Origin: Candidatus Latescibacterota bacterium
Lineage (GTDB): Bacteria; Latescibacterota; UBA2968; UBA8231
Direction: 5' to 3'
Assembly: GCA_965221775.1 (NCBI GenBank)
Contig: CBDCSU010000004.1
Coordinates: 736,001 to 800,000, forward strand
Length of the DNA: 64,000 nucleotides
Shown piece by piece: positions 18,774 through 48,600 of the stretch. The position numbers and the translations under genes were made by a program. Below the pieces are notes generated by a model. The model saw nothing but the letters and a program-made list of their open reading frames with translations, was not told where the DNA came from and made no database searches. Within the stretch, counting starts at the first letter, position 1. Each line of letters opens with the position of its first letter.

Positions 18774-19682
18774 ATGACCACCACAGCCGACGTGCAAACC
18801 CTTCCCCAGCGCCTCCTCGGCAAGACCGGCGAGCGCGTCCCCGTCCTCGGCCTGGGCACCGCCTGCGGAGGACTGGGCATGCCCGACGCCGAGGCGATCG
18901 AGCTCTACGAGGCGGCCATCGACCGCGGCGTAACCTACCTCGACACCGCCCCCGGGTACGAGCGCGCCCAGCGGCAACTCGGCCACGTGGTGCCCCGCCG
19001 CCGCGACGAGATCTTCCTGGTCACCAAGTCCCCCACCGCCGACGGCGCCGAAGCCGAACGCCTGCTGGAACAGAACCTGCGCGACCTCGGCACCGACGCC
19101 GTCGACCTGTGCTACGTCCACTCCCTCGGCAACTACGATCCCGACCAGGTCCTCGCCCCCGACGGCTCCCTCGCCGGCCTGCGCGAAGCCCAGAGGCGGG
19201 GACTGACGCGCTACGTCGGCTTCACCGCCCACCACAGGACCGGCAGCTCCGAGCGCGTCCTCCGGGAGGCGGAAGTCGACGTCATCATGGTCTCCCTCAA
19301 CTTCGCCGACCACCACACCTACGGCTTCGACCGCACCGTGCTGCCCTTGGCCGCCGAGCGCGACGTCGGCGTGGCGGCCATGAAGGTCTACGGTGGCGCC
19401 GAGGCGATGGAGTACCACACGAAGGAGGGAGAGGACCAGCGCCCCTCCGCCCTTCAGGCCAGCGAGCCCGCCTTCGACCACGAACGCGCCCTGCGCTGGG
19501 CCCTCGGCCTGGCGGGAGTGAACGTCGCCGTCATCGGCATGTACTCGGAGGAGGAGCTGGACCGCAACATCGAGTGGGTGCGCCGCTGGCAGCCGCTGAC
19601 GGCGGAGGAGGAGACGCAGCTGCTGGAGGAGGGCCGTCGCATCGCCCGCTCCTGGGGCGACCACTACGGGGATACCACATGA
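18774..19682 (+). CDS. Aldo/keto reductase
   Basis: LGKTGERVPVLGLG, GVTYLDTAPGY, IFLVTK, DLCYVH, AAMKVYGG; GAGGAG RBS. Confidence 0.92.
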   Translation: MTTTADVQTLPQRLLGKTGERVPVLGLGTACGGLGMPDAEAIELYEAAIDRGVTYLDTAPGYERAQRQLGHVVPRRRDEIFLVTKSPTADGAEAERLLEQNLRDLGTDAVDLCYVHSLGNYDPDQVLAPDGSLAGLREAQRRGLTRYVGFTAHHRTGSSERVLREAEVDVIMVSLNFADHHTYGFDRTVLPLAAERDVGVAAMKVYGGAEAMEYHTKEGEDQRPSALQASEPAFDHERALRWALGLAGVNVAVIGMYSEEELDRNIEWVRRWQPLTAEEETQLLEEGRRIARSWGDHYGDTT

Positions 19683-19714
19683 CAAAGCCCATCGGGACAT
19701 ACACAGTCCGCATG

Positions 19715-19779
19715 TTGTGACGCTGTAGACTGAACGGTTACACTTGAGGGGCAACACCAGCGTTGAGTCTGGTTTGCCC
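19715..19779 (+). promoter_or_regulatory. Putative promoter and inverted-repeat operator of the MNT-HEPN module
   Basis: TTGTGA(19715)-18-TACACT(19739), then imperfect IR gggcaacaccag...ctggtttgccc before AAGGAGGA. Confidence 0.4.
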
Positions 19780-19795
19780 GCAAGGAGGAGCCCCA

Positions 19796-20113
19796 TTGAG
19801 CGCCAGAATCGACATTCCCAGAGACGAGATAGCTGCCTTTTGCCAGCGCCACCGCATCCGCCGTATGGCCCTGTTCGGCTCCGTGCTGCGCGACGACTTT
19901 TCGCCTGAGAGCGACGTGGACTTGCTCGTGGAATTCGAGCCAAACACGCGTATAGGCTACATCGGCTTGGCAGGGTTGGAGATTGAGCTGGGGAAAGTTC
20001 TGGGACGAAGGGCTGACTTGCACACCTTGGAAGGAGTTCGCAGCAGCCGCAACTGGCTCCTCCGGGACGAGATACTGGGTTCGAGAGAGGCGGTATATGA
20101 GCAGGCGCGATGA
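19796..20113 (+). CDS. MNT family nucleotidyltransferase (antitoxin)
   Basis: LFGSVLRDDFSPESDVDLLVEF (GS..DxD); TTG start after AAGGAGGA. Confidence 0.92.
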   Translation: MSARIDIPRDEIAAFCQRHRIRRMALFGSVLRDDFSPESDVDLLVEFEPNTRIGYIGLAGLEIELGKVLGRRADLHTLEGVRSSRNWLLRDEILGSREAVYEQAR

Positions 20114-20441
20114 TCAGATCAGCTTGGTGGACATGCTGAACCACGCACGGGAAGCGGTCGCCCTTTTGGGCGAGGCAGGCCCGGATGACCTCGCAGGAGA
20201 TCGGATCCGGGAACTCGCACTACGGAAGTTGGTGGAGATCGTTGGAGAAGCGGCCAATCGCGTTTCGGAACAGACACGCCAGTCCCATCAGGCAATACCC
20301 TGGCCCCAGATTGCTGGAATGCGCAACCGGCTGATTCACGGCTACGATGACGTCAGTCTGGGTAGATTGTGCGATACCATCAAGGAGGACCTGCCTCCCC
20401 TCATTGACCAACTACAAGCCAGCGTCGGCGAACAGGAGTAG
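20097..20441 (+). CDS. HEPN/DUF86 family ribonuclease toxin
   Basis: EIVGEAANRVS, IPWPQIAGMRNRLIHGYD (RX4HXY); overlaps the MNT gene. Confidence 0.92.
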   Translation: MSRRDDQISLVDMLNHAREAVALLGEAGPDDLAGDRIRELALRKLVEIVGEAANRVSEQTRQSHQAIPWPQIAGMRNRLIHGYDDVSLGRLCDTIKEDLPPLIDQLQASVGEQE

Positions 20442-20473
20442 TGGTGCCGCTCCACAAGCCACCGGCTTGAGCA

Positions 20474-20852
20474 CCGACCACCAAACCTACGGCTTCGACC
20501 GCACCGGTTGCCCCTGGCCGCCGAACGTAAGGTCGGCATGGCCGCCATGAAGGTCGACGGCGGCTCCGAGGCGATGGAGTACCACACCAAGGAGGACGAG
20601 GACGGGCGCCCAACCGCACTGTGGGCCAGCGCGCCCGCCTTCGACCACGAACGAGCCCTGCGCTGGGCCCTCGGACTGCCGGGCATCGGCATCGCCGTGA
20701 TCGGCATGTACTCGGAAGAGGAGATGGACCGCAACATCGAGTGGGTGCGCCGCTGGCAGCCGCTGACGGCGGAGGAGGAGACGCAACTGCTGGAGGAGGG
20801 CCGCCGCCGGATCGCCCGCTCCTGGGGCGACCACCACGGGGACTTGGTGTGA
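20474..20852 (+). pseudogene. Displaced diverged 3' fragment of the aldo/keto reductase gene
   Basis: Direct repeat of about 19306-19672 (AAMKV.GG.EAMEYHTKE...RNIEWVRRWQPLTAEEETQLLEEG) with a frameshift near 20506. Confidence 0.9.
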
Positions 20853-21094
20853 GGATCTCCGATCTGCGGCGGCAGTCCGCGGAGAGCCGCGCCGACTTCG
20901 TCAGGGAAATCGCCGACGACGTGAGCCGGCGAATCCGCGAGGGGCTGGTGGCCGAGCCCGAGGCGCGGGAGCTGGCCGCGGGACTGCGCTTTCAGGCGGG
21001 ACTGCTGATGCCCGAGAGGCTGGAGGCGTTCGACCGCATCTACGGAGCCCGCTTCGAGCGCCTGATCCGCCAGTTTCTGCGGGGGGAGGGCTGA
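20849..21094 (+). CDS. Small hypothetical protein (81 aa)
   Basis: GTG overlaps TGA of AKR fragment; host-like codon use; C-terminal FDRIYGARFERLIRQF. Confidence 0.65.
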   Translation: MRISDLRRQSAESRADFVREIADDVSRRIREGLVAEPEARELAAGLRFQAGLLMPERLEAFDRIYGARFERLIRQFLRGEG

Positions 21095-21206
21095 CCACCA
21101 AGGCGCCGGTCACCATGCCGTCGATTAGAGCGAAGACACTGCGGCACGACTGCGAGCTTCATCTTGTGGATCTCGCTTACGCGTCTTCCAGCATTCGCGC
21201 AGGAGG

Positions 21207-22226
21207 ATGCGCAAGTCTCATGGTGTAGACTTGGCGATCAGCAAACAAGCATTTAGAAGAGCTTACACGGCGAAGCCGACCTTTGCTGCTGAGCAGGGAG
21301 CAGTGGCTCTTGATGGACTGGGACTGGGTTCGGTTATCGAATGGGCTGAACTTGACGCCAATCCTACTAACTGTGTCTACAAAGCAGTGTGTTGCGAAGG
21401 CAGCTACATTGTCAAGATCAAGTATCGAAGAGCTTTCTCTCTGGTAGTGGAACAGAGAATTACCACACTGCTACGAGAAACAACCACTCTGCCCGTCCCT
21501 GAGATTTGTGTATTGTGCGAGAGCACCGATGCCTTCGGACATCCTTATATGATTTCCAGTCTGCTCCCCGGTATTCAAGGGCGCGACTTCTTCGAGATGC
21601 CCGGCACCTGCGATGATCGGAGGTGTCGCCTGCTCGAGGAATTTGGCTCAGTGGTTGCAATCATCAATAACCAAGGAGTCTCGGACGGTCTGATACCGGT
21701 GCAGGATATGACCGAATGGCGAGAGGACATACGGGCAAAGCTCCTTGAAAATCAGGAGTTGGTAGCCGACCTGCCAGAAGATTGTCAAGCGAAGTTGCCC
21801 ACTATCGAGGATCTTCTGGACAGAATAGATGTCGTGCCGGATCCGGGCCCGCAAGGGCTTCTATGGGGAGATGCCGCTATACACAATCTACTGGTTGATG
21901 ATGACGGCCATATAGTCGGTATTCACGATTTTGAGAATGGAGCTACTGGCGACCTTCTACATGAACAACTGCACGTCGCAGCAGAGTTTAGCCGAGAGCC
22001 CCGAGAGATCTACGGTCGCGATCACTACCCGCAGATGTTCTGGTCCGGGTATGTGGAGGCAGGTGGAGTGCGGATAGAGCCAGACGAGACGTACCTCAGG
22101 GTCAGACAAGCCACAATGGGCGCCGGCCTATGCTGGTTCTGGGAAGTACTGGGTGTTTTCCACCCCAGAACGCCGCAATGGCTGGACGACTTGGAAGGCG
22201 CATTGAGGGGCCTTGTGGAATCCTGA
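21207..22226 (+). CDS. Aminoglycoside phosphotransferase (APH)/kinase-like protein, low-GC insert
   Basis: YIVKI, LPVPEI, YMISSLLPG, WGD..IHNLLV, IHDFE; AGGAGG RBS; visibly AT-richer than flanks. Confidence 0.8.
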   Translation: MRKSHGVDLAISKQAFRRAYTAKPTFAAEQGAVALDGLGLGSVIEWAELDANPTNCVYKAVCCEGSYIVKIKYRRAFSLVVEQRITTLLRETTTLPVPEICVLCESTDAFGHPYMISSLLPGIQGRDFFEMPGTCDDRRCRLLEEFGSVVAIINNQGVSDGLIPVQDMTEWREDIRAKLLENQELVADLPEDCQAKLPTIEDLLDRIDVVPDPGPQGLLWGDAAIHNLLVDDDGHIVGIHDFENGATGDLLHEQLHVAAEFSREPREIYGRDHYPQMFWSGYVEAGGVRIEPDETYLRVRQATMGAGLCWFWEVLGVFHPRTPQWLDDLEGALRGLVES

Positions 22227-22262
22227 CCAACGCATCTGCCTGCGCCGAGGCGGCCCATCCCC

Positions 22263-24935
22263 TCAGAACGCCGTCGCCGAGACCGCCTTGGCGATCATCA
22301 GCGTCGCCGCGCAGAACATGCCCACCAGGGACATGCCCACGCCGAAGCCGACGGCCAGGACCATGGCGTACTGGCGCCACTGCTGGCGGCCGTAGCGCGG
22401 CCACAGGTAGTGCTTGGCCACGAGGGCGCCGATGACCTCGGTGAACATGGCGAAGAAGGTCGCCGCCCCGGCCGAGGCCACGCCCCGGATGAAGCCCCAC
22501 ACGAAGAACATGGGCATGCCGAAGAACCCGAGGATCGAGTAGAGGCCGAGGCCGAAGGCCAGGCCCACGACGATGATGGGCCACTTCACGCCGCCCGTGG
22601 GGTGGCGCAGGTCCTCGTCCACCTCGCCGTCGCCGTCGTCGTCCTTCTGGTTGAGTACCTCCTCGTCGGCGAGTCCGTCGAAGTCCTCGTCGCGGCCGTC
22701 GCCCGTCGACTTGGGGTCCTTCCAGTAGATCTGGAAGAACATGGGCGTCTCCACCGAGCTCTGGTAGAAGTCGCCGCGGAAGCCGGGATGGGTGTCCAGC
22801 TCGAAGAGGGTGATCAACTCGCGGTCGTGCCAGGCTTCCGGCAGGCGCACGCGCAGCATGGTCTCGGCGGCGGTCACCACGCCGGCGTCGTCGGGTGACA
22901 GCCTCAGGGGCCGCGGCAGGTCGGGGTTGATCTTGCTGTCGGGAGCCGGCTCCAGCAGGATCGGCATCTGACGGTCGGGGCCGGCTCCGGTGAAGTCGGT
23001 GTAGAAGTGGCCCGTCGCCGACCAGGGGCCGTAGCGGCGCAGCCCGGGGTTGGTGATCTCCACCTCGTCGGTGACGCGCACGCGCCAGTAGTAGAGGGAG
23101 CGGTCCTTCAGGTTGGCCGGACTCCACACCACTTCCCCGGCAGGCAGGACTTGCCCCTCCACCTCCTCCCCGGCCTGGTATGTGAGGCTGTACTGGGTCG
23201 CCGAGAACCGCACCGCTTCCTGGAAGGCGCGGGCCGGCCAGAAGGTCTGCACGTAGGGGTAGGCGTCGGAGGGGATCGGCGCCAGCTTCCACAGGAAGCT
23301 CCAGTACATCAGGCTGGCGCCGAGAACGATCGGCACCATGACCAGCTCCGCCTTCAGGAGGCTGGTGAAGCGCATCCCCGTGAGCTCGATGATGCGGAAG
23401 GTCTCGGCGTTGCCGCCGAAGTCGGCTCCCGCCAAGGGCACGAACCAGATCTCGACGCCGCGGTACCCGGTGAGGAAGACGATCGCCTCGTGCAGGTGCG
23501 GGATCTGCACGTTCTGCCCGATCAGCCCGTCGAGGCGGGCCGAGACGAAGGACATGATCGGCGCGTACACGAAGGCGATGAGGATGATCACCACCAGGAT
23601 GGTGGTGGTGATCAGCGACGGGAAGAGGGTCTTGGCCAGGACGATGGGATAGGCGGAGGCGATGAAGAACAGGGTGAGGCAGATCCACACCGGGAAGTCG
23701 CCGCGGTTGAGGTGCTTCATGCAGTAGCCGCGGATGCGGGCGGGCTCGTTGCACTCCGGGTGCAGGCAGACATCCGGGTCGTGGCCGTGGGTTTTGGCGT
23801 GGGACTGGTCCTCGCGGTGGTCCCGGGTGCCGCGCACCACCTGCACCATGGAGATGACGGTGGTGGCGAAGATGACGCCCAGTCCGAAGGGCTGCCAGAA
23901 GTCGACGCCGGCGGTGATCTGGGTCTGCACGGCGCCCATGCCGGGCACCCAGTGGGGCATGAAACCGTAGTGATGGAGCAGGGGCGACAGGACGATGAAG
24001 GAGACGACGGCGGCGAAGGAGCCCATGACGCTCCAGAACGGCAGCAGCAGGCCGGCGAAGATCGGCGACAGGCTGAAGCTGATGGCGATCGGCGTCGCCC
24101 CGAGGTAGCGTCCCAGGACCGGCGTAAGGTCGGCGAAGGGGATGGGCAGGATCGACACCTTGACGCCGGCGAAGACCTCGGTGAGGGTGGGGATCGCCAC
24201 GTACACGAACCCGAAGACGAGGCCGATCGACCCGCCCATGGTGAAGCAGGGCCACTTCCAGGTCTGTCTCTCCGAGCCGCTCTCCTCGGCCAGGGCCATC
24301 GCCCCGAGGGCGGCCTGGGGCGCCGTGGGGAAGGGCAGGCGCTCGCGGTCGGAGACCAGCCGGAAGAGGACGTACCCCGAGGTGAACCAGGTGATGCGGC
24401 CCACGAGGATGCCGAGCACCAGCAGGGCGATGGGCAGGGCCCAGTCCATGTGCAGGAAGGTGCGCTGCACGATCGCCTCGGAGTCGGGGGCCGGCGAGAA
24501 CCACCCGTGGCCGAGCCACTTCAGGCCCACCAGTTTCTCGGTGAGGCCGAACTGGGCGGCTTCCGGCGAGCCGACGAAGTACTGGCGCCAGATCAGCTGC
24601 AGGAAGGTGCCGGTCTCGGCGCGCACGATCAGCTGCGACGCCACGTACGTGAGCAGGAAGATCTCCTGCCGCCTGAGGGTGGTGAAGGAGCGCTTGGCGA
24701 TCTCCAGGAAGAGGATCACCGTCACCCACTGCGCCGCATCGCCGATGCCGATGCCGGTGACCAGACCCAGGTACATCTGCCCCGGCGTCATGATGAAGGC
24801 GATGAACAGCACCCCCACCAGCGTCTTGATGGTGTACCCGTGCTCGAAGCGCTCCGGCGCCTGCAGCAGATCCCGATACTCGTGGATCTCCTGGTACTGG
24901 CGCTCGCGCTTCGTTTGTCGGCGGTCCTCTGCCAC
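22263..24935 (-). CDS. OPT-like multi-pass peptide transporter with soluble inserts
   Basis: Many hydrophobic helices, ERLPFP.A, LAPIPS..YP motifs; inserted CxxxxC..CxxH, Ig-like and acidic DxDxDG segments. Confidence 0.75.
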   Translation of the reverse strand: MAEDRRQTKRERQYQEIHEYRDLLQAPERFEHGYTIKTLVGVLFIAFIMTPGQMYLGLVTGIGIGDAAQWVTVILFLEIAKRSFTTLRRQEIFLLTYVASQLIVRAETGTFLQLIWRQYFVGSPEAAQFGLTEKLVGLKWLGHGWFSPAPDSEAIVQRTFLHMDWALPIALLVLGILVGRITWFTSGYVLFRLVSDRERLPFPTAPQAALGAMALAEESGSERQTWKWPCFTMGGSIGLVFGFVYVAIPTLTEVFAGVKVSILPIPFADLTPVLGRYLGATPIAISFSLSPIFAGLLLPFWSVMGSFAAVVSFIVLSPLLHHYGFMPHWVPGMGAVQTQITAGVDFWQPFGLGVIFATTVISMVQVVRGTRDHREDQSHAKTHGHDPDVCLHPECNEPARIRGYCMKHLNRGDFPVWICLTLFFIASAYPIVLAKTLFPSLITTTILVVIILIAFVYAPIMSFVSARLDGLIGQNVQIPHLHEAIVFLTGYRGVEIWFVPLAGADFGGNAETFRIIELTGMRFTSLLKAELVMVPIVLGASLMYWSFLWKLAPIPSDAYPYVQTFWPARAFQEAVRFSATQYSLTYQAGEEVEGQVLPAGEVVWSPANLKDRSLYYWRVRVTDEVEITNPGLRRYGPWSATGHFYTDFTGAGPDRQMPILLEPAPDSKINPDLPRPLRLSPDDAGVVTAAETMLRVRLPEAWHDRELITLFELDTHPGFRGDFYQSSVETPMFFQIYWKDPKSTGDGRDEDFDGLADEEVLNQKDDDGDGEVDEDLRHPTGGVKWPIIVVGLAFGLGLYSILGFFGMPMFFVWGFIRGVASAGAATFFAMFTEVIGALVAKHYLWPRYGRQQWRQYAMVLAVGFGVGMSLVGMFCAATLMIAKAVSATAF

Positions 24936-25084
24936 TAAGCCACCTGTCTCGGGGCGGGATCACCCCACAAGAGTTTCGCGCCAGCGAAACTCGCAACAAA
25001 GCCGCGCAGCGGCTTTGCGATCTCCTGATATTGGCGCTCCCGCTTCGTCTGTCGGCGGTCCTCCGCCACTAAGCCACCTGTCTC
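24885..25084. repeat. 66-bp diverged direct repeat (24885-24950, 25019-25084) flanking a 68-bp triple-hairpin insert
   Basis: Both copies hold the RBS region and codons 1-17 of the transporter, with 5 synonymous differences; the spacer has 9-bp stems gagtttcgc/gcgaaactc and caaagccgc/gcggctttg. Confidence 0.92.
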
Positions 25085-34364: not shown

Positions 34365-34385
34365 CCCGGGCGCCTGGCGCCCGGG
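34365..34385. terminator. Perfect GC-rich palindrome after the GHL10-like gene
   Basis: cccgggcgcc-t-ggcgcccggg immediately after the stop; no U-tract. Confidence 0.35.
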
Positions 34386-34534
34386 ACCCGTTGCGGCCGC
34401 TTCTCGCCGGTGGACGAATCACGGCGCTGAAGCGCCTCGTCCCTTCGCCCCGTCCATCTACGAATCTCCCCGTGCGTGGCCGGCACTTGGCGAGCCCTGC
34501 CGCCGCACCTTCGCCATGGCCCGTCACTTCGGTC
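34385..34534 (+). pseudogene. Collapsed remnant of the downstream enolase-superfamily gene
   Basis: 34385-34395 = 35665-35675; 34393-34486 resembles 36271-36365; 34491-34534 matches 36512-36555 at 42/44. Confidence 0.85.
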
Positions 34535-34660
34535 AGCCGATCCGTAAGGCAACCGGAGCTTTTGGGTCCATGAGCCGAAGCCGCGGCGCATCTGTGCGGC
34601 CGATGTCCGCGACCGGGTGGTGCATCACGCGATTGTCCGCGTGTTGGACCCGCTTCTCTA

Positions 34661-34720: not shown

Positions 34721-35317
34721 ATGCTGCAAACGAAGAGGCAAGACGTGAGGGCGTTGGCCGTCGTGGTGCAGGATGTCGCGAAAAACCTCAGCCCCCATGC
34801 GGTCACCACCCTAGTCGCACACCCCGACGCCGTGCAGTCCGCTCTGGCAGTGGCGGCCGATGCCCTCGCGGCACGAGAGGCGGGCGCGAACATCGAGATA
34901 GTCCGGGGCGCCAAGCCGCGCTTGGTCGCGACGCGAGAGGCCGACCAACACATCGCCGCGCATACCCAACCCGGAAAGCAGGAAGAATTACTCACCTCGC
35001 AAGAACTCGCCAACCGCGCCGGTCTCAAGACCCGCCAATCCGTTCACGACTGGCTGAAAAAAGGGCGCATCATAGGCTGGCAGGGAGCCAAGCGCGGCTT
35101 TGTTTTTCCCGCCGCCCAGTTCGACGACCGCGGCCAGCCTCTCGACGGACTAGATCGCATCGCCGCGCATTTCGATAACGGTTATGCCGCGTGGGTCTGG
35201 CTGACAACGCCGCGTACCGCCCTCGATGGGAGGACGCCCCTGGCCCTTCTTCGCAAAGGTGAACTTGACCAAGTGGCGGCGGCCGTTGCCGGAGACATCC
35301 AAGGCGACTTTGCGTGA
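34721..35317 (+). CDS. Xre/MbcA/ParS-type antitoxin with HTH
   Basis: LLTSQELANRAGLKTRQSVHDW HTH; FPAAQF; AWVWLTTPRTALDGRTPLALLRKG. Confidence 0.8.
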   Translation: MLQTKRQDVRALAVVVQDVAKNLSPHAVTTLVAHPDAVQSALAVAADALAAREAGANIEIVRGAKPRLVATREADQHIAAHTQPGKQEELLTSQELANRAGLKTRQSVHDWLKKGRIIGWQGAKRGFVFPAAQFDDRGQPLDGLDRIAAHFDNGYAAWVWLTTPRTALDGRTPLALLRKGELDQVAAAVAGDIQGDFA

Positions 35318-35594
35318 GCTCGATGGACCAATCCAGATTGGTGCCCCTACGGCAGTCGCTCACGACTCAAACCAGGCCGCAGGCCGGGCACTGTCAGCCG
35401 CTGCTTTCGCCGGAGTACCGGAAGCCGATGGTTTCTTGTTTCAGTCCCGGTTCACGGGGCAGCTCTGTATAGCGACGTTTGACCGGGCGATCGGCAAGCT
35501 GGATGCGCTGGAGATCACTCCCCTGATTGAGAACGTCGATTTCATCGATGCCCTAAGAGACTACGACATCCAGCTTACGACGCCACCTGAGTGA
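35310..35594 (+). pseudogene. RES-domain toxin, C-terminal half only
   Basis: GRALSAA...PEADGFLFQSRFTG..CIATFDRA; the N-terminal R/E part is missing. Confidence 0.7.
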
Positions 35595-35687
35595 ACAGTG
35601 CCAGTGATGCGACAGCTTTCCTTACGAGAAGCGTTGACCTAGGCCCGTACATTTGCCGATCTGAGACCCGTTGCGCCCTCCTCTCCA

Positions 35688-36791
35688 TTGAAGATCACCG
35701 CCCTCGAGCTGACCCCGGTGCGAACGCACCGCGAGATGGGACGCCGCGCCCCGAGCGATCCGGAGCCGGCCGAGTCCCGCCACGTGGTCGTGCAGCTGCA
35801 CACCGACGCGGGCGTCACCGGCCTCGGCGAGATGTCGGACGTCCCCTGGGAGCTGGACGCCGGGTCCGCCGCCCGCCTGCAGGCCGCCCTGGAGCCGCTG
35901 CTGGTCGGCGCCGACGCCGGGCGCCGGGGCCCGCTGCTGGAGGAGCTGTCGCGCCGGCCCTGGGAGCACCAGGTCCTGTGCGGCATCGACATGGCCGTCC
36001 ACGACGCCGTGGCGCGCAAGCTCGGAGTGTCCCTGGCCGCCCTCCTCGGGGGCGCCTTCCGCGACCGCGTCCCCTTCGCCTATCCCCTCGCCCCCTGCCG
36101 CGACGAGGCCGACGTGGCGGCCAACCTCGACCGCATCGAGCGCCGCCTCGGCGAGGGGCACTCCGCCTTCCGCTACTACTTCGGCATCGACCTGGAGCGG
36201 GACGAGAGCCTCCTCGACCGCGCCCGTGCCCGCTGGGGCGACAGCATGAAGCTGACCGCCCTCGACGCCAGCGGCCGCTTCTCGCCCGACGAGGCCGTGG
36301 CTGCGCTGAAACGCCTGGCGCCCTTCGCCCCGGACGTCTTCGAGTCCCCTGTGCGCGGCCGGCACCACGCGCCGGCGGAGCACTTCCTCGCGGTCAAGAG
36401 CGAGATCGACGTGCCGATCTCCGAGCACACGGCCGACGAAGCCTCGGCCCTGCGGATGGCTCGGTCCGGGGCCGTGGATGTCTTCAACACCGGCCTCGGG
36501 TACGCCGGCATCGAGCCCTGCCGCCGCACCTTCGCCATGGCCCGCCAGTTCGGTCTGAAGACGCTCATGGGGAGCACCGTGGAGATGTCGATCGGCACGG
36601 CCGCGAGGGTTCAGGTGGCGGCGGCCACGGCGAACCTCGATCTCGGATGCTACATGGCGGGACCCCTCGTGTACCACGAGGACGTCACCGTGGAGCCGGT
36701 CCGCTACGAGGAGGGGCAGGTGCTGGTGCCCGACGGCCCGGGGCTGGGCGTCGAGCTGGATCCGGGGAAGCTGCGGTCACTGCGGATCTGA
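35688..36791 (+). CDS. Mandelate racemase/muconate lactonizing enzyme (enolase superfamily)
   Basis: VVVQLHTDAGVTGLGE, GIDMAVHD, LLGGAFRDRVP, LDA..FESP..ISE, VPDGPGLGVELD; TTG start. Confidence 0.9.
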   Translation: MKITALELTPVRTHREMGRRAPSDPEPAESRHVVVQLHTDAGVTGLGEMSDVPWELDAGSAARLQAALEPLLVGADAGRRGPLLEELSRRPWEHQVLCGIDMAVHDAVARKLGVSLAALLGGAFRDRVPFAYPLAPCRDEADVAANLDRIERRLGEGHSAFRYYFGIDLERDESLLDRARARWGDSMKLTALDASGRFSPDEAVAALKRLAPFAPDVFESPVRGRHHAPAEHFLAVKSEIDVPISEHTADEASALRMARSGAVDVFNTGLGYAGIEPCRRTFAMARQFGLKTLMGSTVEMSIGTAARVQVAAATANLDLGCYMAGPLVYHEDVTVEPVRYEEGQVLVPDGPGLGVELDPGKLRSLRI

Positions 36792-36918
36792 GGGGAAGCG
36801 CAGTCCCTTCAGTCATCGCCTGCATGGAACTGCGTCGACCGAAGCGATGACCACAGTTCCTTTGCCGCCCTCCTTCCGTGCTCGTAGCTTGCTCATGTCA
36901 GGCTCCTTTGGTTACCGG

Positions 36919-37170
36919 ATGAACGAGTCAGCAGTCCGGCTCCGTATCGAGCCACTGGATGAAGGTGGCTATCTGGCCACGAGTCCCGATGTCCCGGGCC
37001 TGGTTGCGGAAGGACGCAGCGTCACCGAGGCCGCCGAGATTGCGCAAGGTCTCGTACGCAAAATCGCAGAGTCGTGCCTTGAGCACGGGGACCCGCTCCC
37101 TGGTGCATTGGCCACGCTTCCGGAGGGCCACGCCTCAATTGACCTGATGGTACCTGTCAGTATGCCGTAG
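36919..37170 (+). CDS. hicB: HicB family antitoxin
   Basis: IEPLDEGGYLATSPDVPGLVAEGRSVTEAAEIA...EHGDPLP. Confidence 0.85.
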   Translation: MNESAVRLRIEPLDEGGYLATSPDVPGLVAEGRSVTEAAEIAQGLVRKIAESCLEHGDPLPGALATLPEGHASIDLMVPVSMP

Positions 37171-37196
37171 TGGGACGGCTCTCCGGGTTGGCCTGA
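37170..37196 (+). pseudogene. Possible stub of hicA toxin (8 codons)
   Basis: TAGTG overlap then VGRLSGLA*, resembling MGRL(S/A)G N-termini I recall for HicA proteins. Confidence 0.45.
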
Positions 37197-37202
37197 CCGG
37201 AC

Positions 37203-42112: not shown

Positions 42113-43116
42113 TCCTGGTCCCAGGGAAGGGGCACGCCGAGGCGGGCGCCGGCGCCGCGCACCGACTCCTGCTCCGGCGGCCCGAAGGGGATGCCCTCGC
42201 GGCGGTAGCGCTCGAAGCGCTCGGCCTCGACGGCGCCGGGCAGCAGGGCGCGGTCGTGACCGGGGAAGGGCTCGTACGTGGCGGCCACGTCGCGGACCAT
42301 GCGGTCCACCTCGGCGCGGAAGGCCTCCTCCGAGACCGCCGAGCCCACGTGGATGGCCAGGATCGTGCCGCCGCTGGTGGCCTTCGGCCAGCGTTCAGCC
42401 GTGGCCGGGTCGGTCTGGGTGATCCCGGCGAGGCCGCCGCCCATGAGGGCGGCCACCGCGGTGTAGCCGACGCTCTTGAAGAAGGCCGCCGGGATCAGGG
42501 GGATCAGGGCGTCGAACTCCGCCCCCTTCTGGTAGTCGGCGAGGATGCGGGTGGCCGCGTCGAGAACGACCCCCGGCGTCTCTCCCCCCGGAAGGGCGAA
42601 GCAGATGGGCGGGTTGCCGTAGTAGGCCAGCTGCGGCTTGGGGTCGGCGGCGGCGGCGTTGCCGAGCCCCCGCGGTCCCTGCGCCGAGAACCCGATGCAG
42701 CCGGCGGCCGCGGCCCGGCGGCAGTAGTGGCCGGCGGAGCCGTAGTGGCCGATGGAGCGCACCGTGGCCATGCCCAGGCCCAGCTCCCGCGCCCGGGCGA
42801 CGGCCATGTCGGTCGCCTCCAGCATCGGCACGTATCCCAGGCCGCCGTCGCCGTCGAGGGCGGCCACGGCCGGGGTCTCGTGGATGACCGAGGCCCGCGG
42901 GGCGGGGTTGAGCAGACCCGCCTCCAGGGAGGCGCAGTATCCGTCGAGGGCGCGGCAGCCGTGGCTGCGGACGCCGCGCAGGTCGGAGTCGACGAGAAGC
43001 CGGGCCACGGCGCGCGCCTGGGCGGGAGGCGATCCGGCCTTCTCGAAGCAGGCCGAGGCAAAGCTCAGCAGCCGCTCCTCGCGCACGTTGACGGCCGTCT
43101 CCGGCGGCCGGTTCAC
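42109..43116 (-). CDS. Ldh_2 family oxidoreductase (malate/L-lactate/sulfolactate dehydrogenase type)
   Basis: SDLRGVRSHG, LDGDGGLG, HYGSAG, GNPPICFA, LLPG. Confidence 0.88.
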   Translation of the reverse strand: MNRPPETAVNVREERLLSFASACFEKAGSPPAQARAVARLLVDSDLRGVRSHGCRALDGYCASLEAGLLNPAPRASVIHETPAVAALDGDGGLGYVPMLEATDMAVARARELGLGMATVRSIGHYGSAGHYCRRAAAAGCIGFSAQGPRGLGNAAAADPKPQLAYYGNPPICFALPGGETPGVVLDAATRILADYQKGAEFDALIPLIPAAFFKSVGYTAVAALMGGGLAGITQTDPATAERWPKATSGGTILAIHVGSAVSEEAFRAEVDRMVRDVAATYEPFPGHDRALLPGAVEAERFERYRREGIPFGPPEQESVRGAGARLGVPLPWDQE

Positions 43117-43200
43117 GGCCTCTCCCTCCTTGCCCCGCCCCGGCGGCCGGAGCTACCTTGCCCCGCTCCCATTTCTCACCTGAGACCGAGCTGGATCCGA

Positions 43201-44343
43201 ATGAAACTCGACGTCGTGGAGCTGACGAAAGAGCTCGTAAGCTACAGATCCGAGAGCCGCCTGAGCAACGTCCCGGTCACCGAGCGGATCGCGGCGATTC
43301 TGGAGTCGCTGGGGTTCGAGGTCGAGCGGCTTCCCTATACCGACGACCGGGGTGTGGACAAGCTCTGCGTCGTCGGCCGGCTGGGGAAGGGCGGCGGCGG
43401 CCTGACGCTGATGAGCCACGACGACGTCGTGCCGGCGGCCCTCGAGGACGGCTGGAAGCAGGACCCCTACCAGGCCCGCGTGGCCGGGGGCAAGCTCCAT
43501 GGCCGCGGCGCCTGCGACATGAAGGGCCCCCTGGCGGCCTCGATCTGCGCCGCCGCGAAGTTCGGCGCCGGCGACCTGAAGCAGCCGCTGTTCATCGTGG
43601 TCACCGCCGACGAGGAGGTGCAGGCCCGCGGCGCCCGCGAGGTGACCCGCAAGTCGAAGCTCTTCGACGCGGCCAGCACCGGGTACGGGGTGATCTGCGA
43701 GCCCACCCTGCTGCGCGTGGTCTACGCCCACAAGGGATCGATGGCGATCCGCGCCACCGCCAGCGGCCGCGCCGCCCACACGAGCACCCTGAAGGGGGTC
43801 AACGCCAACCTCGCCATGATCCCCTTCCTGGTGGAGATGAGGAAGATCAACGACCTCGTCCTCTCCTCGAAGCGCTACCGCAACGAGGAGTTCTCGCCGC
43901 CCCACTCGGAGTGGAGCATCGGCATCAACGACGGCAACGTGGCCACCAACATCTCTCCCGTGCGCAGCGTCTGCACCGTGAGCTACCGGCTCATGCCCGG
44001 CATCGACCCGGCGCGGCTGCTGGAGCGCACGAAAGCCAAGGCCAGGGAGTGCGGCCTGAAGGTGGAGGTCCGGTTCCCCGGCGAGCCGGTCTACACCCCC
44101 CCGGACGCCCCCATCGTGCGCACCGCCCTGCGCCTGACCGGCACCCGCAAGCCGACGACCGTGGCCTACGGCACCGACGGCCTCGCCTTCCGCGAGAAGA
44201 TGCGCGACCTGGTCGTGCTTGGACCCGGCAACATCGCCCAGGCGCACACCGTGGACGAGTGGGTGCGGATCGATCAGCTGCGCAAGGCCGTCGACCTGTA
44301 CGGGCGCTTCATCGACCACGTCTGCGTGCGCGCAGAGAGCTGA
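43201..44343 (+). CDS. argE: Acetylornithine deacetylase-like M20 metallohydrolase
   Basis: SHDDVVP, GRGACDMKG, TADEE, ICEPT, HKG, YGTDG, GPGNIAQAHTVDEW. Confidence 0.78.
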   Translation: MKLDVVELTKELVSYRSESRLSNVPVTERIAAILESLGFEVERLPYTDDRGVDKLCVVGRLGKGGGGLTLMSHDDVVPAALEDGWKQDPYQARVAGGKLHGRGACDMKGPLAASICAAAKFGAGDLKQPLFIVVTADEEVQARGAREVTRKSKLFDAASTGYGVICEPTLLRVVYAHKGSMAIRATASGRAAHTSTLKGVNANLAMIPFLVEMRKINDLVLSSKRYRNEEFSPPHSEWSIGINDGNVATNISPVRSVCTVSYRLMPGIDPARLLERTKAKARECGLKVEVRFPGEPVYTPPDAPIVRTALRLTGTRKPTTVAYGTDGLAFREKMRDLVVLGPGNIAQAHTVDEWVRIDQLRKAVDLYGRFIDHVCVRAES

Positions 44344-44350
44344 GGGAGGA

Positions 44351-44517
44351 TCCGCCGCAGGGGCGAGCCCGGGAGCCCGGTCGACCGACGGCGGCCGGGG
44401 CCTCGGCGATGGACGGCTATCAGAGCCGCCCTTGCGAAGCCGATCGCCGCAGAGGTCCTGGCGGATGCGCCCCACGAGCACCTCGTCGCGGCCGCTGGCC
44501 TCCAGGGGCACGGGAAG
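44351..44517 (-). pseudogene. Degenerate copy of the asd 3' end and its downstream flank
   Basis: Translates PLEASGRDEVLVGRIRQDLCGDRLRKG; 44453-44510 matches 47702-47759 at 54/58; 12-codon internal deletion. Confidence 0.9.
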
Positions 44518-44528
44518 AGGAGAACGCA

Positions 44529-45755
44529 ATGATGAAGCTGGCGCAACGTCCGGTCTCTCGCTCGATGGCCCCCCTGTTGATGATTGCAGGATTGCTGCTG
44601 GCCGCCTTTGCCATGGCCTGTCGGGGCGGGCAGGATGCACCCGAGCCAGAAGGCCGGGACGACCCCGGGTTCTCCGACGACCACGTCCTCTTCGGTCAAT
44701 CCGCCGCCTTCACCGGACCGGCGCGGGAGTTGGGTCAGGCGATGCGCCTGGGAATCGAGGCGGCCTTCCACGAGGCGAACCAGGGAGGGGGCGTCCATGG
44801 CCGCGAGCTGAAGCTCAAGGCCCTGGATGACGGCTACGAAACCGGCTTCGCCGCTTCCAACACGGAACGGCTGATCGAGATCGAGAGGGTCTTCGCCCTC
44901 ATCGGAGCGGTGGGCACACCCACGTCCCGCGCCGCATCACCGCTGGCCCGGGCGGCCCGGGTGCCCTTCCTGGCTCCCTTCACGGGGGCCGAGTTCCTGC
45001 GCCACCGGGAGTTGGACAATGTCCTCAACCTCCGGGCCTCGTACTACCAGGAAACCGAGGAGATGGTGGCGCGGCTCACCGAGGACCTGGGGATCACCCG
45101 CGTCGCCGTCCTCTACCAGGATGACTCCTTCGGCCTGAACGGGCTGGAGGGCGCGAGACGGGCCCTCGAGCGCCGCGGCCTGGAGCCGGCAGCGGCCGCC
45201 CACTACCCGCGCAATACCCGCGCCGTGAGGGGGGCGGCGCTCAAGATCACCGCGGCCGATCCGGAAGCGGTGATCCTCATCGGCTCCTACATGCCGGTGG
45301 TGAAGACCATAGAGTTGGTGCGGCGGGAGCTGGACCCGGTATTCATGACGGTCTCCTTCGTGGGGAGCAACGCCCTGGCCAACGAGCTGGGCCCCGACGG
45401 GGCCGGCGTGTACGTCACGCAGGTGGTTCCCCTCCCCCACGACGCGGACATCCCCGTGGTGGCTCGATACCACGGGGCGCTCTTCGAGTACGACCCCCGG
45501 GCGGAACCCGGGTTCGTCTCGTTGGAAGGGTATCTGGCCGGCCGCCTGGCCGTGGCCGGCCTCGAAGCCTGCGGCCGCGACCTGAGTCGAGAGTGCCTTC
45601 TCCAGGCGGTGCGGGAGGCCGGCACCATCGACATCGACGGCATGCGGCTCAAGTACGGGCCGGACGACAACCAGGGATCCGACGCCGTGTTCCTCACCGT
45701 GATCGGCACGGACGGCGAGTACCAAGGGGTCGACAGACTCAGAGGCCCGAACTAG
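44529..45755 (+). CDS. ABC branched-chain amino acid-type substrate-binding lipoprotein
   Basis: AAFAMA-C lipobox-like, FGQSAAFTGP, GGVHGR..DDGYE, VGTPT, LRASY..E. Confidence 0.88.
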   Translation: MMKLAQRPVSRSMAPLLMIAGLLLAAFAMACRGGQDAPEPEGRDDPGFSDDHVLFGQSAAFTGPARELGQAMRLGIEAAFHEANQGGGVHGRELKLKALDDGYETGFAASNTERLIEIERVFALIGAVGTPTSRAASPLARAARVPFLAPFTGAEFLRHRELDNVLNLRASYYQETEEMVARLTEDLGITRVAVLYQDDSFGLNGLEGARRALERRGLEPAAAAHYPRNTRAVRGAALKITAADPEAVILIGSYMPVVKTIELVRRELDPVFMTVSFVGSNALANELGPDGAGVYVTQVVPLPHDADIPVVARYHGALFEYDPRAEPGFVSLEGYLAGRLAVAGLEACGRDLSRECLLQAVREAGTIDIDGMRLKYGPDDNQGSDAVFLTVIGTDGEYQGVDRLRGPN

Positions 45756-45789
45756 AGACCTCCCGAACGGCACTGCGGAGAACCCCAAG

Positions 45790-47523
45790 ATGTCCATGGA
45801 AGGCTTCTCGCTCCAGGCGATAACGGATCTGTTCAAGTTCGCCGAGCACACCCACGAACTGCACCAGTCGCTGTTGACTCTCGGACTGCTCATCATCGTT
45901 GCCAAGCTGGCCGAGGGCGTCTTCCGCAGGCTGCGCCTGAACTCCATCATCGCCTATGCGGCGACGGGCATGCTCCTGGGTCCGGTCATGGAGCTCACCG
46001 GCCTCTGGTGGATCGAGTCGACCCTGCACCTCGAGCTGGTCCTGGCGCTGGGGGTGTTCATCTTCTTCTTCCTCATCGGCCTGGACGAAGTCGACATCTC
46101 CAGTTTCATGTCGTCCCTCAAAGGCCACTACTTCCTCGCCGCCGTGCTCTCCGTGACCGTGTCGCTGAGCATCTCGATGCTGGTCACCACCGACCTGGTC
46201 TTCGATTTCGGACTGAAACTGAATTTCACCGAGTCCCTGGCCCTGGCCGGCGTCCTGTCCATGACCAGTCTGGGCATCGTGGCGAAAGTGCTGACGGACG
46301 GCGGCTACCTGAAAAAGCCGGTCGGACTGCAGATCTTCACGGTGGTGATCATCGCCGAGTTGATCGCCCTGCTGCTGATCGGCTTCAGCATCGGCGAGCA
46401 CGCCCACCAGCTTTCCCCCGTGGGCATACTGATCCTGCTCGGCAAAGTCGCCGGTTTCTCGGTGGTGACCTGGGTGTTGTCGTCGCGGGTGCTGCCACCC
46501 CTGGTGGCGCTGTTGCAACGGGTGATCCAGGTGCCGCAGCTCTCCCTGGGTCTGCTCCTCGGCATGCTCTTCCTGATCGTGTACGGCGCCGAAGCGGTGG
46601 GACTCCACGGCTCGCTGGGGGCCCTGCTCTTCGGGGCGTCGCTCTCGGGCCTTCCCTACCAGGTGCAGCGGGAGATCATCCCGGGGATTCGCAGCGTCGC
46701 CGAGGGGTTCTTCGTGCCCCTGTTCTTCGCTTCCGCCGGATTGAGCTTCAGCTTCACCTTCGTCACCCTGCCCCTGGAGGCGATGGCGGGGCTGGCGCTG
46801 ATCCCGTTGCTCGGCAACTTCACCGGCGCCTTCATCGGCGCTTACGTCTCCCGCCTCGCCGTTCCCTACGCCGTGGCCACCGGCCTGATGGGCAAGGGCG
46901 TGGCCGAGATCGCGCTGTTGCTGGTCATGTGGGATTCCGGAATCATCGACGAGGTGGTTTTCTCGTTCCTGGTGCTGGTCATGTTCTGCTACATCCTGTT
47001 CATGCCGTCGGTGATCAACTTCGCCGTGGGCCGGGCCAGCCACAGGACCGACCTGCCGGAGAAACTCGACGACATTCCCCTGGGAATCGCCCGCTTCGCC
47101 CTCGAAGACATCAGGATCGACGACATTCTGGACCGCGCGCACCGGCATCCGGCGCCGACCGTCACGGTGCGCGACTTCACCGAGCAGTGGATCGTCCCGC
47201 ACCAGCCCCACTACGTCGTGGCAGACGAGGAAGCGCTCGTGGGGATCGTCTCCCTGGAGATGCTCCGCTACCTGCCCAAGGAGGCCTGGGGCAAGACCCG
47301 GCTCGACGCCGTGGTACGCCGCCAGACCCCGTTGGCCTGGCCGGACGAGCAGGTCGAAGACGTGCTGCAGCGCATGTCGGAGAGTTCCCTTTCCGTCATG
47401 CCTGTCGTGGAGCGGGATTCGGAGAGGTTTCTGGGCTCGGTCACCAGCAACGACATCATCCAGCTCATGACCATGGAGACCGTGGACGAGAGCAGATCGC
47501 CGCGCGGTCCGATCAAGGCCTGA
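45790..47523 (+). CDS. Cation:proton antiporter (CPA2) with C-terminal CBS pair
   Basis: About 12 hydrophobic helices, FLIGL, GALLFG, FFVPLFFASAG, KGVAE; CBS-like LVGIVS and FLGSVT. Confidence 0.85.
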   Translation: MSMEGFSLQAITDLFKFAEHTHELHQSLLTLGLLIIVAKLAEGVFRRLRLNSIIAYAATGMLLGPVMELTGLWWIESTLHLELVLALGVFIFFFLIGLDEVDISSFMSSLKGHYFLAAVLSVTVSLSISMLVTTDLVFDFGLKLNFTESLALAGVLSMTSLGIVAKVLTDGGYLKKPVGLQIFTVVIIAELIALLLIGFSIGEHAHQLSPVGILILLGKVAGFSVVTWVLSSRVLPPLVALLQRVIQVPQLSLGLLLGMLFLIVYGAEAVGLHGSLGALLFGASLSGLPYQVQREIIPGIRSVAEGFFVPLFFASAGLSFSFTFVTLPLEAMAGLALIPLLGNFTGAFIGAYVSRLAVPYAVATGLMGKGVAEIALLLVMWDSGIIDEVVFSFLVLVMFCYILFMPSVINFAVGRASHRTDLPEKLDDIPLGIARFALEDIRIDDILDRAHRHPAPTVTVRDFTEQWIVPHQPHYVVADEEALVGIVSLEMLRYLPKEAWGKTRLDAVVRRQTPLAWPDEQVEDVLQRMSESSLSVMPVVERDSERFLGSVTSNDIIQLMTMETVDESRSPRGPIKA

Positions 47524-47557
47524 GGCGGCTGGCCCGCGAGGCCGGGTGTCCGCCGCA

Positions 47558-47578
47558 AGCCCGCCGGAGAGGCGGGCT
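47558..47578. terminator. Hairpin between the convergent antiporter gene and asd
   Basis: agcccgcc-ggaga-ggcgggct. Confidence 0.4.
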
Positions 47579-48600
47579 CAGGAGCCGAGACGGCCGGCGG
47601 CGGCCAGGGCCTCGGCGATCTGCACGGCGTTGAGGGCCGCGCCCTTGCGGAGCTGATCGCCGCACAGGAACATGCTCACGGAGGTGCCGTCGGGCCGCGA
47701 CAGGTCCCGGCGGATGCGGCCCACGAGCACGTCGTCCCGGCCGCTGGCCTCCAGGGGCATGGGGAAGTGGTTGGCCTCGCGGTCGTCCACGAGAGCCACC
47801 CCCGGCGCCTCGCCCAGGATCCGCCGCACCTCCTCCTCGCTCACCGGCTCCTCGAACTCGACGGTCACCGCCTCGGAGTGGGCCCGCAGGATGGGGACGC
47901 GCACGCAGGTGGGCGACACCAGGATCGACTCCTCGTGGAACATCTTGCGCGTCTCCCGGATCATCTTCACCTCTTCCTCGCAGTAACCGTCGGCGTCGAT
48001 CTCGGTGTTGTGCGAGAACAGGTTGAAGGCGATGGGGTACGGCAGCTCGCGCGGCACCGCCGGCCGGTCGTTGAGGACGTCCCGCGTCTGCTCCACCAGC
48101 TCCTCCATGGCGGGGGCGCCGGCGCCGGAGATCGCCTGGTAGGTGGAGACGATCACGCGGCGCACGCGGTGGACGCGGTGCAGGGGCCACAAGGGGACGA
48201 CCATGATGATGGTGGAGCAGTTCGGGTTGGCGACGATGCCCTTGTGGGCGTCCAGGTCGGCGGGATTGACCTCGGGCACCACGAGGGGCACCTCCGGGTC
48301 CATGCGGAAGGCGGAGGTGTTGTCCACGACCACGGCGCCGGCGGCCACCGCCGCGGGCGCGTAGCGCCGGCTGAGGCTGCCGCCGGCCGACGACAGCACC
48401 AAGTCCATGCCCTCGAAGGAACCCTCGGTCAGCTCCTGCACGGTGAGGCTCTCGCCGCGGTAGTCGATCCTGCGCCCGGCGGAACGGCGCGAGGCCAGCA
48501 GCCGCAGCTCCTTCACCGGGAAGTCGCGCTCGGCGAGGATCTCGAGCATGACCTCGCCCACGGCGCCGGTGGCGCCCATGATGGCGACGCGGAAGCTCAC
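47578..48600 (-). CDS. asd: Aspartate-semialdehyde dehydrogenase
   Basis: GATGAVG, DNTSAFRM, PLVVPEVN, ANPNCST, STYQAISGAG, DQLRKGAALNAVQIAE. Confidence 0.97.
   Translation of the reverse strand: MSFRVAIMGATGAVGEVMLEILAERDFPVKELRLLASRRSAGRRIDYRGESLTVQELTEGSFEGMDLVLSSAGGSLSRRYAPAAVAAGAVVVDNTSAFRMDPEVPLVVPEVNPADLDAHKGIVANPNCSTIIMVVPLWPLHRVHRVRRVIVSTYQAISGAGAPAMEELVEQTRDVLNDRPAVPRELPYPIAFNLFSHNTEIDADGYCEEEVKMIRETRKMFHEESILVSPTCVRVPILRAHSEAVTVEFEEPVSEEEVRRILGEAPGVALVDDREANHFPMPLEASGRDDVLVGRIRRDLSRPDGTSVSMFLCGDQLRKGAALNAVQIAEALAAAGRLGS

Follow-up and report, generated by a model that had tools for sequence, protein, structure and literature searches.

Eroded direct duplications bracketing cargo genes in a Candidatus Latescibacterota genome

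We analysed a 64,000-nucleotide stretch of the genome of a Candidatus Latescibacterota bacterium (assembly GCA_965221775.1, contig CBDCSU010000004.1, positions 736,001 to 800,000; G000:C4:736001-800000 in our numbering, where G000 is the source genome and C4, C6 and so on are its contigs), referred to below as the window, in which intact genes stand beside diverged partial copies of themselves with cargo genes in between. On balance, we favour the explanation that each scar began as a long direct duplication of local sequence that held the cargo where its two copies join, produced by general host recombination and repair and later eroded by deletion. The footprint is mostly explained as the already published insertion with long target duplication and is not a new genetic system. 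What is new here is that the scars are eroded duplications of a whole gene or more with reciprocal survival of the copies, that some of them have relocated native genes and that some appear to be younger than the cargo.

The source genome comprises 5.36 Mb in six contigs, with a GC content of 70%. Named records with close relatives of its genes carry the label Candidatus Latescibacterota or Gemmatimonadaceae, and the sequencing runs that contain DNA of the window are mainly sponge metagenomes. Four genomes of the same genus, G002, G004, G006 and G007, with about 87-97% alignment identity to it, served as comparators; the assembly of G004 is 83% complete. Genes were called with a custom hexamer model, which recovers the Pfam-supported genes of the window. 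Loci fetched from the source genome, its relatives or other records are given L numbers (e.g. L075, L082, L317).

Direct repeats in the window

A first-pass annotation, made from the letters alone, had proposed four sites of a single geometry, at each of which cargo is bracketed by an intact gene and a decaying copy of part of it. Self-blastn of the window recovered all four direct repeats where they had been placed, while a tblastx self-comparison gave compositional noise only. The repeats are diverged and range from 66 to about 370 bp, as had been described, with identities of 88% over 370 bp at an aldo/keto reductase (AKR) gene, 92% over 66 bp at a membrane-protein gene (site 2), 77% and 95% for two pieces at a mandelate racemase/MLE gene and 68% at asd. 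The MLE and asd remnants do carry internal deletions, the MLE relic being in two pieces and the asd relic having 40 gap positions. Site 2 contains no cargo gene, which reduces the cargo cases to three, with spacers of 0.8 kb (AKR), 1.1 kb (MLE) and 3.0 kb (asd). A Pfam scan of 35 window open reading frames (ORFs), from which the gene names are taken, supported AKR, MNT, HepT, the Xre/MbcA antitoxin, MR/MLE, the periplasmic binding protein, the Na/H exchanger-CBS protein and Asd, and matched no transposase or integrase family among them. The sites themselves are free of transposases, integrases and tRNA genes, as had been stated, but the MLE cargo includes a 100-bp relic of a reverse-transcriptase gene, i.e. 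mobile-element debris. The sole tRNA found in the window, at 10201-10273, lies 9 kb from the sites; it is a tRNA-Tyr on the minus strand, with no insertion adjoining it in G006 or G007.

The features of the AKR site are:

18686..18720, plus strand: promoter-like motif before AKR (TTGCCG...GATGTT), with a putative sigma70 role
18774..19682, plus strand: intact upstream copy of AKR (Pfam), ending in DTT-stop as in G002 and G006; the downstream-type end is DLV-stop
19796..20113, plus strand: MNT antitoxin, cargo (Pfam)
20100..20441, plus strand: HEPN (HepT-like) toxin, cargo (Pfam)
20474..20852, plus strand: AKR 3' relic with a frameshift and indels, 88% identical to 19306-19672, keeping the native DLV-stop end, which overlaps the start of the next ORF
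20849..21094, plus strand: 81-aa ORF, the native downstream neighbour of AKR, which adjoins AKR also in G007 and in the distant genome G009

The repeat detected by self-blastn pairs 19306-19672 with 20474-20842. The same geometry is shared by G002 and G006, and a clean empty site was found in none of the four close relatives. The MNT-HEPN pair of G000 is 69-71% identical to the pair occupying the same slot in G002 and G006, and across the relatives MNT genes in upstream and downstream positions are 93-95% identical. In G006 the AKR gene is followed by a fragment of another gene, a different MNT-HEPN pair (71% identical to that of G000), a copy of the promoter motif and a 444-bp AKR relic. The order in G007 is a 42-bp AKR 5' relic, an MNT gene 95% identical to those of G002 and G006, and an intact AKR that ends in DLV-stop and is coupled to the 81-aa ORF. 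G002 has an AKR 5' relic, a decayed MNT-HEPN pair, a promoter copy, an intact AKR, an MNT-HEPN pair and a 74-bp 3' relic; the second copy of the promoter motif thus follows HEPN in G006 and leads into the intact AKR in G002, and in both genomes a start region accompanies it ahead of the second AKR. In G004 a G000-type MNT gene, 88% identical over 170 bp to that of G000, lies directly behind the promoter, and AKR was not found in that 83% complete assembly. G007 has therefore retained the downstream AKR and lost the upstream one, while the upstream copy has been retained in G000, G002 and G006. Judged from these sequences, the simplest history would be that promoter and gene were duplicated whole, with the toxin-antitoxin pair between the copies, that one copy or the other was then lost, and that strains recombining within AKR produced the arrangement in G002.

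A tree on the 286 repeat columns of AKR gave support of only 36-74% and does not settle the origin of the alleles. A first tree, which separated upstream and downstream copies with high support, was not used because it included tail and flank columns. Searching metagenomes with AKR yielded no close relative, the best match being 74% identical at the amino acid level. The slot behind the promoter-like motif (18720-18760) also varies, being empty in G000 and occupied by a helicase-like gene in G006, an ankyrin-repeat-like gene in G002 and G007 and MNT in G004 (named by eye). Further downstream, 21207-22226 holds a low-GC phosphotransferase gene (APH-family Pfam match) in a variable slot with no flanking repeat; it is common to G007, and other genes are found there in G002 and G006.

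The features of the asd site are:

43201..44343, plus strand: M20 peptidase (probably ArgE-like), convergent with asd at the empty site
44352..44514, minus strand: asd 3' relic with internal deletions, 68% identical to 47561-47763 with the 40 gap positions
44517..47528, plus strand: cassette of a periplasmic binding protein and a Na/H exchanger-CBS protein (SBP-antiporter cassette; Pfam), absent at this site in G006
47578..48600, minus strand: intact asd (Pfam)

This site is empty in G006, and the cassette is common to G002, G004 and G007. The length of the asd relic differs among G000, G002, G004 and G007. In G007 a relic of the 3' end of the M20 peptidase gene survives to the right of the cargo, so that the duplication was two-sided and spanned the junction of the two convergent genes. 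Copies of the cassette that are 82-88% identical at the nucleotide level occur in records of other Latescibacterota, Binatia and Gemmatimonadota, which points to its transfer across phyla. The cassette was also seen in Dehalococcoidia at lower identity, and it occupies many unrelated sites.

In another lineage the right flank of the cassette is common to 12 loci. Eight of these carry no relic, two (L238 and L241) have the end of the upstream gene as a relic after the cassette, and two (L243 and L299) have the start of the downstream gene as a relic before it, in one case 100% identical over 55 bp. From the sequences these relics look younger than the arrival of the cassette, so a scar need not date an acquisition. 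In L243 and L299, at about 3675-3750, the binding-protein gene lacks its own start and has in its place, as an in-frame fusion, the start of the downstream gene, whose N-terminus is MLE-like.

The features of the MLE site are:

34365..34540, plus strand: MLE relic, in which the native intergenic leader (as at the empty site of G004) is joined by deletion to two gene pieces
34552..34652, plus strand: reverse-transcriptase gene relic, 87% identical in nucleotides to the RVT_1 gene of L317
34685..35317, plus strand: Xre/MbcA/ParS-type antitoxin, cargo (Pfam), not found in the other nine genus genomes searched
35314..35594, plus strand: relic of a RES toxin, C-terminal part, aligning with some 88 residues of a RES relative 199 aa long
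35661..36791, plus strand: intact mandelate racemase/MLE gene with its leader (Pfam), the leader being like that of G006 and G007 (TTG start) and unlike that of G004 (ATG)

The two repeat pieces pair 34393-34486 with 36271-36365 (77%) and 34491-34534 with 36512-36555 (95%). Since the relic runs from the leader to about nucleotide 870 of the gene, the first MLE copy must have been nearly whole. The cargo is absent in all four comparators and was not found in the remaining genus genomes searched, so that relatives supplied, here and at asd in G006, the empty sites for which the first-pass annotation had suggested looking. Within the RES relic one sequencing run, X2, has 277 letters where G000 has 130. 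An ATPase-like gene (named from translated motifs) has been inserted independently at this site in G002 and G006, after which G002 kept the first MLE copy and G006 broke both. In G006 a 37-bp remnant of the upstream gene survives at a distance of about 1.4 kb from the MLE end that follows it, and the duplication accompanying the ATPase insertion was therefore about 1.4 kb or more. Behind MLE, a decayed 400-bp piece (36795-37200) is common to G004 and has a weak translated match at C6:2542.7k.

Site 2 has two features:

22263..24935, minus strand: intact 890-aa membrane protein (the transporter of the first-pass annotation), no Pfam match, first 51 bp duplicated upstream
24885..25084, minus strand: duplicated gene junction around a triple hairpin, without a cargo gene (self-blastn)

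The 66-bp repeat, 24885-24950 against 25019-25084, consists of 15 bp of upstream sequence and the 51 bp of the membrane-protein start, and its spacer is a 68-bp triple hairpin (-41 kcal/mol) that is conserved at the same site in G002, G006 and G007. The duplication creates a 44-aa ORF (24935-25069), which is kept in G006 and G007 and lost in G002. A REP (repetitive extragenic palindrome) or MITE (miniature inverted-repeat transposable element) was considered and rejected, the hairpin being single copy in G000 and present among 327 loci at the orthologous site only. It is possibly a selected RNA structure between two coupled genes. A core of about 50 bp in the hairpin (24951-25018) is identical in four genomes while the flanks differ; the hairpin has no Rfam match, and G006 has an extra partial copy upstream.

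Elsewhere in the window, 5512-5657 is a perfect 73-bp tandem duplication without a spacer, present as one copy in G007, and at about 3535 (G000:C4:739535) G006 and G007 each have about 19.5 kb that is absent from G000.

A strain-chimeric assembly might be suspected from the 7.75% contamination with which the genome is listed and from the close matches in metagenome runs. The same structures, however, are found at different stages of decay in G002, G004, G006 and G007, and the relics bear frameshifts and deletions. Contigs of one run bridge the AKR and MLE junctions without differences (this is possibly the source run and is not counted as independent), and the MLE junctions are bridged also in runs of two other studies, bridging being judged from assembled contigs. 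Because the three gene-cargo sites recur in related genomes or independent runs they are not an assembly chimera. The worry about co-assembly raised in the first-pass annotation is met by the bridged AKR and MLE junctions and by the asd site common to G002, G004 and G007; a chimera is refuted for these sites, and we give it next to no weight as an explanation.

Scars across the genome and its relatives

The recurrence noted in the window extends across the whole source genome and across the lineage. A local self-blast combined with a classification into gene and non-gene sequence found 82 genes with a match in G000, of which 68 have at most three copies and 59 a spacer of at least 250 bp; these 59 matches are raw, some being the two sides of one event and some paralog fragments. 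The matches are strongly polar (53 of 59): downstream relics mostly derive from the 3' half of their gene (42 of 45) and upstream ones from the 5' half (11 of 14). In 27 of the 45 downstream cases the match extends into the last 5% of the gene, and the median spacer is 1.3 kb. In an independent count, unique gene-matching non-coding pieces within 12 kb of the gene numbered 88 in direct and 0 in inverted orientation, against 24 direct and 35 inverted for pieces more than 200 kb away and 41 and 43, respectively, for those on other contigs. By this contrast the pattern is real and tandem.

That the density in the window suggests routine gene acquisition was not borne out. With 57 sites over 5.28 Mb, three sites fall within some 29-kb stretch in 88% of random placements (P=0.88). 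Nor did a census of indels between G000, G006 and G007 show an enrichment of such repeats, 10 of 55 bearing them as against 21 of 150 random segments; the control segments mostly match tandem paralogs, and the 10 include several entries that represent a single site scored in two or more genomes. The study of Touzain et al (2010) gives 10-18% of variable segments as repeat-flanked in three species, mostly by repeats of <30 bp; the share found here is similar and the repeats are longer.

The cargo and neighbour genes include genes of toxin-antitoxin systems and defence (AbiEi/AbiEii, HigB, PLD nucleases, TIR, AAA-DUF4143), WD40 and LRR proteins, transporters and enzymes, with a single IS1595 transposase among 43 such proteins scanned from other sites of G000. 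An AbiEi/AbiEii pair (85% nucleotide identity) occupies adjacent but different slots in L075 of G000 (13137-15169) and in L163/L164 of G002, and at each place a separate relic flanks it. Other genera have such scars as well: control stretches from other genera held two polar matches in 180 kb (G011), two in 200 kb (G017) and four in 200 kb (G019). Distant genomes of the same genus gave 0 in 92 kb (G001) and 0 in 81 kb (G009), samples too small to imply a genome-wide absence.

Twenty loci of G000 were fetched, 12 were searched in the relatives and 11 were compared in detail (13 events); L082 was dropped, its host gene not being found in three relatives and being partial in G004. An empty site with one copy of the target was seen for eight of 16 events, MLE and asd included, these calls being made by eye from blast maps; most of the others hold different cargo in the slot. 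The relatives also bear scars of their own where G000 is empty. Relics on both sides of the cargo or spacer were found at asd in G007, at site 2, at C4:1158-1161k and at C6:941-947k, and in one young case the flanking repeats are 100% identical over 56 bp. C6:759449-760984 is among the young sites with fully identical repeats, and C6:1266942-1270844 is another young site.

Local gene duplication and loss was found at three loci, all outside the window. The cargo at C6:942.9k has a 93% identical copy 19.6 kb downstream and is followed by bits of sequence from about 40 kb downstream. At C6:1926-1929k the gene order is Y-Z5'-W-V-Z in G000, V-Y-Z in G007 and Z-W in G006, which is what a duplicated V-Y-Z-W block would give after reciprocal loss. 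In the G002 orthologue of C5:1118-1124k, two native genes are swapped around a relic. As a separate observation, in G006:C1:2845013-2845968 fragments of two genes that lie far apart in G000 adjoin each other (88% and 95%), as if ectopically captured. Whole-gene or multi-kb origins of the duplications are seen in the relatives, some cargo is local and, in the other lineage, the relics look younger than the cassette they flank.

The decay of the relics was followed in 19 relic-gene pairs with 2668 polarised sites, one pair giving none. Changes found only in the relic were synonymous in 66 cases and non-synonymous in 126 (66/192; neutral expectation 28%), as opposed to 37 and 20, respectively, for those found only in the intact gene (p=6e-9). 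The relics have decayed near-neutrally, and most of their divergence must therefore have arisen after the relic died. Of the G000-derived states, 40/97 are common to relic and intact copy, so that in several cases both copies stem from the G000 lineage. A mosaic test using sliding identity and G004-diagnostic sites found no break at the repeat edges, and control genes were equally patchy. The earlier suggestion that an incoming allele rebuilds the gene while the old end decays fits AKR and MLE, where the native end has stayed with the relic and that of the intact copy differs. It is not supported as a general rule: the relics are what erosion has left at the ends of duplications that covered a whole gene or more, their decay is near neutral and the intact genes show no clean mosaic break at the repeat boundary.

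Origin of the scars

In the explanation we favour, recombination that is out of register or one-ended, with a sister chromosome or with DNA taken up from close kin as the partner, would duplicate from 0.05 to >20 kb, with foreign DNA or a neighbour from within the duplicated span as the cargo at the joint; both templates are included because the data cannot separate them. The comparison of relatives shows what follows, namely that one copy of each duplicated gene is kept, either upstream or downstream, and that the other, no longer needed, changes in a nearly neutral way and is shortened by deletion. Erosion would tend to halt where the relic bears the start, ribosome site, promoter or stop of a neighbour, and this would leave 3' relics downstream and 5' relics upstream. 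As the arrangement in G002 suggests, ordinary homologous recombination between strains could then reshuffle left and right halves, and once both copies had lost single-copy genes, the new order would be locked.

Several observations weigh against this explanation. In three genomes the upstream AKR ends in DTT-stop, its stop occupying the codon position that it has in the native DLV-stop, and to judge by its sequence this looks like the end of another allele. Similarly, the intact MLE has a leader different from the native one kept by its relic. Synonymous changes make up slightly more of the relic-only total than neutrality predicts (p=0.044). In 8 of 12 pairs the similarity of the intact gene to G004 is slightly lower within the repeat than beyond it, and relic 67 matches G006 better (95%) than it matches its own gene (89%). 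At some sites kin alleles have probably played a part. A local paralog of the spacer is left in G000 for only 8 of 59 spacers (about six events), so that only a minority can be given a local origin. None is left for the three window cargos, which the local route therefore does not explain. The first arrival of foreign DNA at the joint is something we infer.

As to machinery, seven tyrosine recombinases are encoded in G000, none of them near the window. ComEC and DprA are each found in nine of 10 genomes, and both are intact, with open frames in G000, in line with the competence genes that had been proposed as worth looking for. Ku, LigD and MutS are likewise present with open frames in G000. 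Loss of MutS as a cause of promiscuous recombination was rejected, the gene being present in 10/10 genomes. All five are found also in most of the distant members of the genus, so their presence alone explains nothing.

The intact ComEC and DprA would suit homology-facilitated illegitimate recombination, the second option of the first-pass annotation, in which linear kin DNA anchors by homology in a host gene, brings in the gene end together with cargo, joins illegitimately within the resident gene and displaces the old end. Such a process has been proposed for the Vibrio cholerae type VI secretion system (T6SS) arrays (PMC5361080), and it would account for the native ends kept by the AKR and MLE relics, for the 27 of 45 downstream relics reaching the last 5% of the gene and for the one-sided relics at the cassette locus of the other lineage (L238/L241 and L243/L299, with none in 8 of 12 loci). 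The two-sided relics, on the other hand, would each need two events, and the whole-gene copies with promoter and their reciprocal survival at AKR, the near-neutral divergence of the relics and the lack of a clean mosaic break weigh against it. It also needs a donor in which the cargo already lies beside the gene, and would thus spread cargo while leaving its first entry unexplained; we consider it unlikely as the main route.

Two-sided duplications spanning a junction, with exact empty sites, are what would be expected from Campbell-type integration by a single crossover of small circles holding a host piece and cargo, for example popped out of a relative via repeats, and the repeated MNT-HEPN-promoter-AKR unit of G002 would fit amplification through the repeats. 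Furuta et al (2010; PMC2853133) hypothesise such a cycle for restriction-modification (RM) units and state that release was not demonstrated. No circle was seen among the assembled contigs, and the permutation of native genes over 20-40 kb and the origin of the first repeat would have to be explained in another way, which makes this route improbable. Less probable again is a transposase or nuclease acting in trans, which would insert cargo with long variable target duplications and then be lost. Elements of the IS1634 family do make long variable target duplications. The repeats of 40-480 bp flanking cargo, the young case with 100% over 56 bp, the IS1595 transposase among 43 scanned proteins and the reverse-transcriptase relic in the MLE cargo could be taken in its favour. 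Yet IS1634 gave no match over the cut-off in 10 genomes and none in G000, the longest terminal inverted repeats average 6.1 bp as compared with 5.9 bp in shuffled pairs, and no shared end motif, Rfam family or tRNA site was found. The SBP-antiporter cassette is without a bracketing repeat in most other hosts, and the cargo is heterogeneous.

Comparison with known systems

The closest known class is insertion with long target duplication, defined by Furuta, Abe and Kobayashi (2010; PMC2853133) as an insert of <20 kb with a duplication of >30 bp and no other mobile element. In their cases a start or stop codon frequently lies within the repeat, the target gene remains intact, and the species are mostly naturally competent. 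The cases described here agree in insert size (0.8, 1.1 and 3.0 kb in the window), in having direct repeats of >30 bp and no mobility gene, and in the empty site found in a relative for MLE and asd. They differ in that the published inserts hold R and M genes, whereas ours hold MNT-HEPN, Xre-RES and SBP-antiporter and so behave like the class without being RM members; in that the published repeats are about 93-100% identical in the table rows seen and ours 68-100% and internally deleted; in that there are dozens per genome, with toxin-antitoxin, defence, transport and repeat proteins as cargo; and in that relatives show the original duplication to have often been a whole gene or more. A literature search, which covered few subscription papers, found no paper on this footprint for the phylum or for toxin-antitoxin cargo. 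The entry and movement of genes without a mobility function on bacterial chromosomes is poorly resolved, and the known class rests on a few dozen restriction-modification cases with no demonstrated mechanism.

In the T6SS/Rhs arrays (Kirchberger et al, 2017; PMC5361080) a module likewise lies behind a conserved gene part with the old 3' end displaced downstream, without an integrase and with later shuffling by homologous recombination. Those arrays are confined to toxin-immunity loci and are one-sided, whereas here the targets are housekeeping and metabolic genes, relics may lie on both sides and the upstream copy may die. Streptococcus pneumoniae can take up a partly repeated fragment that gives a tandem duplication by unequal crossing-over, also by self-transformation (Johnston et al, 2013; PMC3784515). 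Those merodiploids are 100-900 kb in size, IS861-bounded and transient, while the duplications here are small, fixed and eroded, and transformation is only hypothetical.

The scars also resemble SNAP (Brandis and Hughes, 2020; PMC7055797; Cao et al, 2022; PMC9016547) in tandem duplication, loss from either copy and the locking of a new order; pseudogenes with matching active copies were named as the intermediate to seek (PMC7055797). Here, either copy has been lost at AKR, and native order is permuted at three loci, all of them outside the window. SNAP duplications differ in extending over tens of kb to Mb and being held by dosage selection, whereas most spans here are 0.1-5 kb and many of the duplications carry foreign cargo at the joint. 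A broader proposal, which we put forward only tentatively and regard as doubtful, is that in Latescibacterota a recombinase-free insertion-duplication, relying on DNA uptake and on end-joining or template switching by ComEC/DprA and Ku/LigD, would be a standing entry for genes of other phyla, which would then hop between neighbouring gene junctions and leave about ten fixed scars per Mb. If this were true, the genomes would hold a natural series of all the stages of gene-order change by duplication and loss that SNAP predicts and that are lacking in wild genomes. Several near-complete genomes of this clade, each with dozens of dated scars, together provide empty sites, reciprocal survivors and recombinants, and so make it testable by comparison whether duplication or cargo came first and whether duplication and loss drive changes in gene order as in SNAP.

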